From Clostridia bacterium (GTDB lineage: Bacteria > Bacillota > Clostridia > TANB77 > CAG-465): 32,000 nt of DNA. The notes below the pieces were generated by a model. That model worked only from the letters and a program-made list of their open reading frames with translations, did no database searches and was not told where the DNA came from. The position numbers were made by a program, and so were the translations under genes. Below, in pieces: positions 13,621 to 15,080 of the stretch. The stretch is from contig JAFXHJ010000001.1 in assembly GCA_017536445.1 (NCBI GenBank), positions 34,300 through 66,299 of the forward strand, read 5' to 3'. Positions within the stretch are counted from its first letter, which is position 1; the number at the start of each line of letters is the position of its first letter.

Positions 13621-14718
13621 ATGATAAACAAAACTTTTGAAGAGTTAGGTGAATATAGAGCACCTGATGGTTATATAGATTTTGACAGAGTAGTAGAAGA
13701 AAATGACGTAGAAACTGAACGTGAAATAAGAGGTAATGAGAATAGAGAGAAAGATTGGATAGACATAAATGGTGGAAGAGTTCTTGTAAAAACAAATGTA
13801 GATGGACAACAAAACTCAGAATATTCTGAACTCATTTCTTGTGCATTAGCTCGTCAAGCGGGAATGGAAACTGCAGAATATGACATGGTCAGATACAAAG
13901 GCGAACAGGGATTAATAACTAAATATGTTTGTAAAGAGGGCGAAGAAATGATTACTCTTCACGAGCTTATAGGAAGCGGACCGGATGTTCCGGGATATGA
14001 AGATACAATAGATATAGATCATGTTTTTGATAATTTGCCATTAAAATTAAAACAACAAGGCCTGAGTGAACAAGATATAGATGAATGTATGTTAGGTATA
14101 AGAAAACAACTTCTATTCGATTTAGCGATAATGGAAGGAGATAGACACCTAGAGAATATTTCTTTAATTTTTAGTAAAGTAGATGGTAAACAGACAGTTA
14201 GAGTAGCTCCTATGTACGATACAGAAGCGGCGCTTATTTTAGGAAATGAACCTGAAGTTATGGAAAAAATATATACAGACTGGATGAAAACAGCAAGTTT
14301 GACAACAACTCAACCACCTAAGATATCCATTATACCTGAAGCTAAAGAGGAAGAGGTTTCAGATTTGCCGCCTGCATTAATGGGATTTTTAGCACAATTA
14401 AGAAGTGAGGTTAAGACAAACAAAAGAGAAGAATTTACTACTGATACAGAAGAAATGTGGATGACCACTTTTGACTTTTTATGTGAAGACGAAAGAGCAA
14501 GAGAGTTTTTTGAAACAAATTTAAAAAATATGGATATAAGAAAAGCTTTAACGGAAGTAGAAATGAAAATAGGTGTAAAAGTACCGGAACATATTAGAGG
14601 CATGGCTATTGCATGTTTTGAAGATAGAGTAATGGCGATGGACTATAGAAATAGAACAAAATTAAAAGAAATGGGAAGAGATATAAAAGAAGTTAGTGAT
14701 GATAATACTGTAAGATAA
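13621..14718 (+). CDS. HipA-like Ser/Thr kinase core (lacks the HipA N-terminal subdomain; HipT-like)
   Basis: 365 aa after AGGAGG. The catalytic region LLFDLAIMEGDRHLENISLIF...VRVAPMYDTEAAL matches the HipA_C pattern (xxDxHxxNxS...LxPxYD). Confidence 0.7.
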   Translation: MINKTFEELGEYRAPDGYIDFDRVVEENDVETEREIRGNENREKDWIDINGGRVLVKTNVDGQQNSEYSELISCALARQAGMETAEYDMVRYKGEQGLITKYVCKEGEEMITLHELIGSGPDVPGYEDTIDIDHVFDNLPLKLKQQGLSEQDIDECMLGIRKQLLFDLAIMEGDRHLENISLIFSKVDGKQTVRVAPMYDTEAALILGNEPEVMEKIYTDWMKTASLTTTQPPKISIIPEAKEEEVSDLPPALMGFLAQLRSEVKTNKREEFTTDTEEMWMTTFDFLCEDERAREFFETNLKNMDIRKALTEVEMKIGVKVPEHIRGMAIACFEDRVMAMDYRNRTKLKEMGRDIKEVSDDNTVR

Positions 14719-14721
14719 CGG

Positions 14722-14750
14722 TTGACATAAAACAAAAAGTATGTTATACT
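14722..14750 (+). promoter_or_regulatory. strong sigma-A-type promoter with extended -10 for the HipS-like gene
   Basis: TTGACA (14722-14727), 17 nt spacer, TGT-TATACT (14742-14750). The palindrome ATACTAT-T-ATAGTAT (14746-14760) overlaps the -10. Confidence 0.55.
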
Positions 14751-14804
14751 ATTATAGTATGCAAATAATTATCTAATCACAACTTGTGAAAGGAGATATA
14801 AGCA

Positions 14805-15080
14805 ATGATTAAATATGACGTGTGGTTTAAGAACTTCAGAATCGGAGAATTGTACATCAATGAATCTGGACAACACAAGTATGTTGTCGATATGGGTGCC
14901 GTAGAAATGGCAGAAAAGGATGATATAATTCTTGCTGATGCGAAGACCAATCGTGATTGGTGTGACCCTATCCCGTTCTTCGAAAGCAGGATTGCAAATT
15001 GCAAGAAGTTTGGCGAAGAGAATGAAATCCGTTATCCTAATAGCGAATACTATTTTATTAAGGATAACCATTACAATTAA
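14805..15080 (+). CDS. HipA N-terminal-subdomain-like small protein (HipS-like)
   Basis: 91 aa after AAGGAGA. MIKYDVWFKNFRIGELYINESGQHKY parallels the HipA opening (..W.N..R[VI]GEL.....G.H..Y), and PIPFFESRI parallels the FF(D/E)NLLP motif. Confidence 0.6.
   Translation: MIKYDVWFKNFRIGELYINESGQHKYVVDMGAVEMAEKDDIILADAKTNRDWCDPIPFFESRIANCKKFGEENEIRYPNSEYYFIKDNHYN

Follow-up and report, generated by a model that had tools for sequence, protein, structure and literature searches.

The DNA examined here, referred to throughout as the window, is a stretch of 32,000 nucleotides (nt) from a Clostridia bacterium (GenBank assembly GCA_017536445.1, contig JAFXHJ010000001.1, positions 34,300 to 66,299 of the forward strand), which carries the S10-spc-alpha cluster of ribosomal-protein genes; the G+C content of the genome is about 32%. 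Around the genes of interest the order is secY, two unknown genes, adk, map, a kinase gene encoding 365 amino acids (aa), a gene for a 91-aa protein, a gene for a 396-aa Big_2 membrane protein, infA, rpsM and rpsK. This work concerns the kinase gene and the small gene that follows it (coordinates in Table 1), which a first-pass annotation of the letters alone had read as a HipT/HipS-like pair in reversed order, with a separate promoter and no HipB. Both open reading frames (ORFs) were found where that annotation had placed them, with the motifs it had quoted: the kinase contains GDRHLENISLIF and VRVAPMYDTEAAL, and the 91-aa protein contains MIKYDVWFKNFRIGELYINESGQHKY and PIPFFESRI. The E. coli HipA motifs that it had given for comparison (MPKLVTWMNNQRVGELTKLANGAHTFKY, FFDNLLP, TDGHAKNFS and LTPFYD) are exact in the translated K-12 hipA gene. 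The reading as such is supported, for the kinase by profile search and for the 91-aa protein by fold and profile-profile comparison only. The pair does lie in the map-infA junction, and it is not directly adjacent to infA, since the 396-aa gene (15182-16372) stands between.

Judged by its predicted structure, the 365-aa protein is a catalytic core, a short kinase like HipT and HipJ, and is structurally closest to CtkA of Helicobacter pylori. It matches Pfam HipA_C (PF07804) with 38.7 bits against a cut-off of 30.5 (E 1.1e-9), over residues 51-208 only, and no Couple_hipA or HipA_N domain was found in the same scan, which bears out the earlier claim of a catalytic region lacking the N-subdomain. 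A word-index search returned 25 kinase homologues, all from metagenomes or metagenome-assembled genomes. PF07804 is carried by every full-length one (24/24), and the remote kinase of locus L019 scores 33.1 bits against HipA_C (loci are cited here by L numbers and individual proteins by P numbers). Across 25 aligned kinase sequences the ATP-binding Lys K57, D174-R-H-x-E-N179 and the Mg-binding Asp D200 (within PMYDTE) are invariant, and the catalytic residues are also kept in the kinases of L010, L011 and L019. When the kinase is aligned to HipA with hhalign, GDRHLEN coincides with the catalytic loop around D309 and N314, and PMYD with D332 of the Mg site.

The AlphaFold2 model of the kinase is confident, with a predicted local distance difference test score (pLDDT) of 86.8 and a predicted template modelling score (pTM) of 0.84. 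In a Foldseek search its best match in the PDB is H. pylori CtkA (3akk_B, E 1.4e-9), with a template modelling score (TM) of 0.73 normalised to CtkA; further matches are the HipA proteins of E. coli and Shewanella (4e-7) and the HipT proteins of E. coli and Legionella (1e-4). Searches of PDB sequences, whether by single protein or by family profile, returned no HipA, HipT or HipS for either gene product, the sequences being too remote for such searches, and a fold search was therefore needed. In the model about 43 residues precede the first core strands of the kinase, which is too short for N-subdomain 1 and comparable to the N-terminal mini-domain of HipT (PMC10627512).

Residues 35-46 of the kinase read E-x-R-G-N-x-x-R-E/D-K-x-W and occupy the place of the Gly-rich loop of HipA and HipT, an equivalence that is positional only. 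E35, R37, G38, K44 and W46 are invariant in 25 kinases, and the segment is kept in the remote L019 kinase. Set against the S-x-x-G-x-Q-x-K motif, E35-x-R37-G38-x3-R-E-K44 differs in spacing and contains no Ser or Thr, and the Pfam alignment begins after the segment. Going by position only, an acidic residue (Glu) would stand where HipA and HipT have their phospho-serine.

The 91-aa protein is, we conclude, a very divergent homologue of HipA N-subdomain 1 or HipS, detected by fold and by profile-profile comparison. Its AlphaFold2 model is confident (pLDDT 84.3), and when the model was compared by Foldseek with 350,542 PDB chains, ranks 1 to 21 were all HipA N-termini or HipS chains. The query-normalised TM is 0.59 for the isolated HipA N-domain 7czo, 0.48 for 7ab3_B, 0.44 for 8ezr_A and 0.43 for 7vkb_B. 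As a control, the same model searched against a viral library (BFVD) gave a random mix of matches. For the profile-profile comparison an alignment of HipA N-subdomain 1 was built from diverse plasmid-borne HipAs (28-77% identity). Against this profile the 74-member small-protein family scored P = 4.2e-4 in hhalign, at a probability of 34%, in a colinear alignment of residues 1-91 with HipA 1-99 that brings FFESR opposite FFDNL. One of 200 column-permuted controls reached the observed score, and the reversed control scored 15.2 vs 31.3. A narrow alignment of near-identical E. coli HipA N-terminus fragments gave a weaker P (0.012), and hhalign of the protein against the N-terminus of a single HipA sequence was uninformative. 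The first-pass annotation would have taken a failure of profile searches to place both proteins as a refutation; the kinase is placed, in HipA_C, but the standard profile libraries do not place the 91-aa protein, which fails on that count.

The small-protein family is sizeable. An exhaustive representative search with its profile gave 76 clusters at E <= 1e-3, mostly stand-alone proteins of 77-130 aa, with the consensus M-x-K-Y-x-V-x-Y ... I-G-x-L ... Y ... P-I-P-F-F-x-x-R-I-x-N, and an aromatic residue is conserved at position 52 in 61 of 74 members. Kinase-less family genes occur at L021 (2069-2359), L022 (2908-3192), L023 (633-917) and L017/L018, with profile E-values from 1e-14 to 1e-4; one of them follows genes for SIR2 and D-lyxose isomerase, and another lies in an alaS-ruvX-DUF1292 cluster ahead of a P-type ATPase gene. 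Members of the family may act independently of a kinase, or the gene for their partner may lie at another place. The profile also matches multiple short stretches in very large repeat proteins, 700-6500 aa long (P0037, P0055, P0070, P0072, P0075, P0079, P0083 and P0101). These matches involve profile positions ~10-45, where the first beta-hairpin lies, and are probably a generic beta-hairpin repeat resemblance. At L033 a 57-aa product had been called for the small gene, and a disruption of the gene was rejected, as the full 91-aa ORF is intact. In an 86-aa protein from an NCBI record (P0010), a kinase N-terminus (PDGYIDFDKVVEEN...REVRGN..REKD...GLITKNMCK) continues in the same frame into the small protein's C-terminal half (PIPFFESRIANCKKFGEENEIRYPNSEYYFIKDNHYN); this chimera is either a natural deletion of most of the kinase or an assembly artefact.

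Genomic contexts were taken for the kinase homologues, for identical IF1 proteins and for six remote small-family members. In all 15 distinct kinase-bearing loci, down to 35% kinase identity, the kinase gene is followed by the small gene on the same strand at a distance of 72-88 nt. The gene upstream of the kinase is map, folA, thyX or an acyltransferase gene, and the pair is followed by infA, rpsJ or a gene for a Big_2 protein. No helix-turn-helix (HTH) neighbour was found at any locus examined, and in the window the neighbours are map on one side and the Big_2 membrane protein gene, then infA, on the other, so the earlier statement that HipB is missing stands. The reversed order without an HTH partner is likewise present, yet not new in kind, as the hipJS modules are a precedent (PMC8262856). 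Both genes are under purifying selection, with ratios of nonsynonymous to synonymous substitution (dN/dS) of 0.08-0.3 for the kinase and 0.02-0.10 for the 91-aa gene. An Rfam scan of 13400-16700 found no RNA family. One locus, L024 (ENA ERZ28654013, scaffold_51, 175 kb), encodes a kinase and a small protein 100% identical to those of the window, with the same neighbours, and likely belongs to the same or a nearly identical genome.

The pair appears to be transcribed on its own. The hairpin directly after the map stop is very stable (free energy (dG) -19.5 kcal/mol, z = -7.5, none of 200 shuffles as stable), and the kinase promoter candidate P1 has an extended -10 element, TGcTATAAT, at 13595-13603, of which TGnTATAAT is kept in relatives; P1 is consensus evidence only, promoter-like sites in the region overall being no commoner than in its shuffles. 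The annotation had given the 91-aa gene a strong promoter of its own, and this agrees with P2, which begins 4 nt past the kinase stop codon and is kept in relatives: TTGACA-17-TGnTATACT is present in the map/infA clade (clade A), L019 and L020, and the rpsJ clade (clade B) has an extended -10 only. The upstream hairpin is seen in most loci, with none evident in L013, L016 and L019 (90 nt shown). The kinase's extended -10 and Shine-Dalgarno sequence are likewise found in most loci, L013 having neither hairpin nor -10 in its 19-nt map-kinase gap. Most loci also have a terminator 3' of the small gene, none being evident in L019 or in L016, whose contig ends 52 nt past the stop. The automatic terminator scan missed both hairpins of the window because their stems are A+U-rich. 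Given terminators and promoters of its own, the cassette is therefore transcriptionally self-contained, and as read from these sites the small gene could be transcribed from two promoters, P1 and P2. The compact pair, the extra promoter for the putative antitoxin and the flanking terminators are consistent with a type II toxin-antitoxin system.

Table 1. Features of the kinase/small-protein cassette, in window coordinates.
Feature	Position	Strand	Evidence or remark
Short HipA-superfamily Ser/Thr kinase, core only, 365 aa	13621..14718	+	Pfam HipA_C, catalytic residues, AlphaFold2, Foldseek, PADLOC
HipS-like (HipA N-subdomain-1-like) protein, 91 aa, probable kinase partner	14805..15080	+	Fold, profile-profile comparison, linkage
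Terminator-like hairpin and U-run, left edge of accessory segment	13545..13593	+	Directly after map stop
Promoter-like site P1 of kinase gene, TTGATT-18-TATAAT with TG	13574..13603	+	Consensus scan, 10/12
Shine-Dalgarno AGGAGG of kinase gene	13610..13615	+	Read from sequence; conserved in relatives
Putative internal promoter P2, TTGACA-17-TGtTATACT, driving small gene	14722..14750	+	11/12 with TG
Shine-Dalgarno AAGGAGA of small gene	14790..14796	+	Within TGTGAAAGGAGA leader, conserved across loci
Terminator hairpin and U-run after small gene	15092..15122	+	dG -17.5 kcal/mol, z = -4.6
Accessory segment relative to the empty site of L028: pair plus variable 396-aa Big_2 gene	13545..16389	+	Comparison with L028

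The pair recurs in relatives at two kinds of ribosomal-protein junction. It lies between map and infA in the window, L001, L005-L009, L013, L014, L024 and L030-L033, and between thymidylate genes (thyA-folA or thyX) and rpsJ in L002-L004, L011 and L016, the last on a contig that ends before rpsJ. In L010 it is upstream of rpsJ and the genes further upstream are cut off. The two junction groups are close relatives (their L4 proteins are 89% identical), yet their kinases are only 44-47% identical. As to whether relatives carry the pair at the same locus, a question raised by the first reading, many do at map/infA, others have it at the rpsJ junction, and L028 has an empty site. L028 encodes an identical IF1 and has adk, an intact map and infA with nothing between. 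Its map directly joins sequence that matches the window from about 16390 onward, comprising the native map terminator (16408-16446) and the infA promoter (16493-16521). A remote pair, that of L019, sits among glycosyltransferase, acyltransferase and peroxiredoxin genes.

The functional tie to the translation superoperon that the first-pass annotation had implied is thereby weakened, given the pair's own terminators and promoters, the empty map-infA site in a close relative and the non-ribosomal context of the remote pair. The junctions behave as hot spots, because other variable non-translation genes (orf533, orf170 and orf396) share the cluster. All this gives the pair the look of a conflict-type, accessory cassette that occupies a hot spot, and not that of a housekeeping gene of translation. 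The link with the ribosomal cluster is best read as a hot-spot effect, and by itself therefore shows no new layer of translational regulation. Nothing was found in favour of a phage or prophage origin beyond weak PHROG matches of unknown function, and this origin was rejected. A scan of metagenome contigs of the Joint Genome Institute (JGI) yielded nothing.

Among genomes whose adk, map, secY, infA and rpsM products are 96-100% identical to those of the window, the kinase is 65-84% and the small protein 82-95% identical. Nucleotide identity is 90-99% in the flanks, 57-75% in the kinase body and 88-94% in the small gene, so that the island of divergence coincides with the kinase gene. Synonymous differences amount to 0.45-0.7 in the kinase, near saturation, vs 0.1-0.3 in adk and map; part of the contrast with adk may come from differences in codon bias. 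Selection on the kinase is not relaxed, because its dN/dS stays at 0.08-0.3. The pattern indicates deeply diverged functional kinase alleles, which would stem from allelic exchange or from a long-maintained polymorphism. Residues 111-160 and 211-365 of the kinase are the most variable; the N-lobe and the catalytic loop lie in the conserved parts, residues 1-110 and 161-210. That one type of small protein occurs with kinases 67% identical is compatible with binding to the conserved N-lobe.

Among the closest known systems is HipBST. In E. coli O127, HipT is neutralised by HipS, which takes the place of N-subdomain 1 and blocks the kinase (PMC10627512), and Lpg2369 of Legionella pneumophila is given the name HipS antitoxin in the report that covers it (PMC9325769). 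As in the HipBST systems of E. coli O127:H6 and L. pneumophila (Lpg2368-2370), the HipA fold is here split into a core kinase and an equivalent of N-subdomain 1 of about 100 aa, and the models match the corresponding chains: the kinase model matches HipT (7ab4_F, 8ezs_B and 7vkb_A), and the small model matches HipS (7ab3_B/E, 8ezr_A and 7vkb_B). Whereas HipBST has the order hipB-hipS-hipT with an HTH protein, the present cassette has two genes, the kinase first, and no HipB or HTH. The small gene here has its own promoter, and Couple_hipA does not pick up its product. The kinase exceeds HipT by about 30 aa, E35-x-R-G stands in place of S-x-S-G, and an Arg is found at the inferred position of Trp65.

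In layout the cassette corresponds to hipJS, in which a short kinase is followed by a HipS-like gene with no DNA-binding partner, an arrangement found in 2 of 1,239 modules and experimentally uncharacterised (Gerdes, Baerentsen & Brodersen 2021, mBio; PMC8262856). The likeness, drawn from the published description, extends to a short kinase lacking N-subdomain 1, a HipS-like gene downstream and the absence of an HTH gene; a difference lies in size, HipJ kinases (a subclade of main clade XI) being reported at 279-321 aa and the kinases here having 353-370 aa.

H. pylori CtkA (JHP0940; PDB 3AKJ/3AKK/3AKL) is the best structural match of the kinase and is itself HipA-like without N-subdomain 1, but the two are just 13-14% identical in sequence. 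CtkA is described as a secreted kinase that translocates into host cells, and nothing points to secretion in the present case. Compared with E. coli K-12 HipA/HipB, GDRHLEN aligns with TDGHAKN and PMYD with PFYD, and the small protein aligns with HipA 1-99. HipA, however, is a single 440-aa chain that includes N-subdomain 1, is neutralised by the HTH protein HipB and is regulated through autophosphorylation of Ser150, none of which applies here. The kinase also matches eight PDC-M03A candidate-defence models of PADLOC (best E 1.6e-16), that is, component A of PDC-M03; the system calls for both components, and the small protein matches no PADLOC model. The PDC systems of PADLOC are candidates that are not known to have been validated.

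Taken together, these data favour a self-contained, accessory two-gene cassette in which a split HipA-type kinase is paired with a HipS-like inhibitor and serves in conflict, a reading to which we assign a probability of roughly 0.55. The pair would then probably work as a kinase and inhibitor in the manner of a toxin-antitoxin system, and not as part of the surrounding ribosomal-protein operon. By analogy with HipBST, the small protein would dock on the kinase N-lobe beside the Gly-rich loop and keep the kinase inactive, and its transcription from the kinase promoter as well as from its own strong promoter would keep it in excess. If the small protein were lost or displaced, the kinase would phosphorylate a cellular target and growth would stop; from what is known of the kinase family, the target would most likely be a translation component such as an aminoacyl-tRNA synthetase. 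The cassette is accessory: within a single lineage of uncultured gut Clostridia it occupies intergenic hot spots that border ribosomal-protein operons. That the kinase gene diversifies far faster than its surroundings fits a conflict role, whether as a toxin or in phage defence.

Several observations weigh against this reading. The 91-aa protein has no sequence match in Pfam, NCBIfam, PADLOC, PHROG or the PDB. Couple_hipA (PF13657) does not match it or nine close homologues at E up to 10, and was found in just 2 of the 74 family members, at E 0.13. Over the 21 top Foldseek matches the E-values are individually weak (0.3-2.2), and TM reaches just 0.43-0.59. The residue that would correspond, through the HipA alignment, to the inhibitory Trp65 wedge of HipS is R62, an Arg and not a Trp, in 58 of 74 members. 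Control by autophosphorylation in the style of HipA and HipT is unlikely because no Ser or Thr stands beside the Gly-rich loop, where E35 is found instead. Remote family members at L021, L022/L023 and L017/L018 (short contigs) have no adjoining HipA_C kinase. At the locus itself no transposase, integrase or flanking direct or inverted repeats were found, and phage contigs scanned with the kinase alignment contained no kinase. Finally, the alleles of the two genes agree only in part. Between the window and L001 the small proteins share 95% identity and the kinases 67%, and the nearest allele group of the window's kinase includes L005, that of its small gene L001 and L008; such a pattern is unusual for a tightly co-evolving toxin-antitoxin pair.

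In the main alternative the small protein would complete the HipA fold, as an obligate structural subunit or an activator, and the two chains would form a signalling kinase and not a toxin with its inhibitor. We consider this unlikely. The homologous N-subdomain 1 does belong to the active enzyme in HipA (PMC10627512), an inhibitory Trp wedge is not evident, with Arg at the inferred position, and the autophosphorylation Ser/Thr is missing; the small protein is moreover far better conserved than the kinase, a single small allele accompanying kinases 67% identical. HipS, however, is an inhibitor in both experimentally characterised split systems, an extra strong promoter for the small gene is the usual way to keep an inhibitor in excess, and the divergence island and the empty site are more in keeping with a conflict module than with an enzyme of signalling.

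A lineage-specific housekeeping regulator of translation, tied to the superoperon and phosphorylating, for example, a ribosomal protein, IF1 or an aminoacyl-tRNA synthetase, is less likely than an activating subunit and in our view quite improbable. Such a role would explain why the pair sits at ribosomal-protein junctions (map/infA, or thymidylate genes/rpsJ) in every close and medium relative, a placement kept down to 44-53% kinase identity with no mobility genes or flanking repeats found. Terminators and promoters of its own nevertheless insulate the pair from the operon, a relative with identical IF1 has nothing at the map-infA site, and the remote pair lies among glycosyltransferase, acyltransferase and peroxiredoxin genes. 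That orf533, orf170 and orf396 also occupy the cluster speaks for hot-spot behaviour, and the kinase is far more diverged than its flanks, synonymous sites included. It is very unlikely that the 91-aa protein is unrelated to HipS and the HipA N-terminus, a conserved neighbour with another role and a generic beta-hairpin-plus-helix likeness, for although Pfam, NCBIfam and PDB sequence searches gave no match, Foldseek E-values are 0.3 or worse with most HipA matches spanning just 26-33 columns, the family profile also matches giant-protein repeats and some members have no adjoining kinase, against this stand 21 consecutive top PDB matches from one protein family where the viral library gave a random mix, a full-length, colinear hhalign match (P = 4.2e-4) whose score 1 of 200 permuted controls reached, and strict adjacency in 15/15 loci to a HipA-type kinase that lacks exactly this subdomain.

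A bolder form of the kinase/inhibitor reading, which we regard as doubtful, would make the pair a branch of split HipA systems that has so far gone unrecognised and is controlled by a logic of its own. In the Gly-rich loop the autophosphorylated Ser would give way to an invariant Glu, the Trp wedge would give way to an Arg or aromatic contact made by the HipS-like protein, and the diversification of kinase residues 111-160 and 211-365 would be that of a surface for sensing or for target recognition. A gut Clostridia lineage would have captured the cassette at the boundaries of its ribosomal-protein superoperon, where it would serve as a translation-targeting immunity switch (abortive infection), and the partner family, with its 76 representative clusters, would be far wider than the kinase and would also act alone.

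Two other variable elements of the ribosomal-protein cluster were recorded. The Big_2 proteins (370-450 aa) share a hydrophobic N-terminus that is conserved and resembles that of pilins (K-N/R-G-V-S-L-I-V-L...), whereas their Big_2 body, rich in Thr and Ser, is variable. Their genes are found in the window (15182-16372), L010 (2016-3341), L007 (6986-8092), L013 (4485-5837) and, in several copies, L009, and are absent from L001, L006 and L014; their place and copy number in the cluster vary, often just after the pair, and the gene has its own promoter-like site. In the secY-adk gap of the window (9728-11852) are genes for a 533-aa protein and for a 170-aa membrane protein with a weak DUF4190 match, which reach just 35-67% identity among genomes in which secY and adk on either side reach 96-97%. 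The 533-aa gene is doubled in L005, and this insert is a second fast-evolving insertion, inside the spc operon.

A separate finding concerns map (12779-13544), the methionine aminopeptidase gene upstream of the pair, which needs a +1 frameshift at 13097-13102. The window reads TAT AAA GGA C GGA TTC CAT, and the intact genes of L013 and L014 read TAT AAA GGT GGT TTC/TGG CAT (VYKGGF/WH); the predicted product would read VYKGGFHADAGR across the shift. The break falls between two metal-binding Asp residues. A pseudogene was rejected, as the same extra base is present in the map of 7 genomes from different species-level bins and purifying selection on each half is strong (dN/dS 0.00-0.06). In the zero frame GGA is followed by CGG, a rare codon here (5/8235 codons), and the site resembles one of programmed +1 frameshifting at a hungry codon (GGA-CGG-A). 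A literature search found no precedent.

What is already known in all this is the HipA superfamily, the existence of split kinase/HipS systems and the kinase-first order without HipB. New are a divergent family of HipS-like proteins overlooked by domain libraries, a distinct signature of the Gly-rich loop, the occurrence of the pair in uncultured gut Clostridia, its recurrent placement at ribosomal-protein operon boundaries and the kinase-specific island of divergence. Split HipA kinases have been studied experimentally only in a few proteobacterial HipBST systems, and the HipB-less, kinase-first layout had amounted to two hipJS modules. The cassette extends a hipJS-type layout to uncultured gut Clostridia and defines a HipS-like family of about 90 aa, and its natural set of alleles, with one partner conserved and the kinase diversifying, helps to map the surfaces that matter. 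If the kinase is toxic and targets translation, the pair would offer a compact system for the HipB-independent control of a HipA-type kinase, and, if the reading is true, would also allow a test of HipA-type kinases in phage defence.

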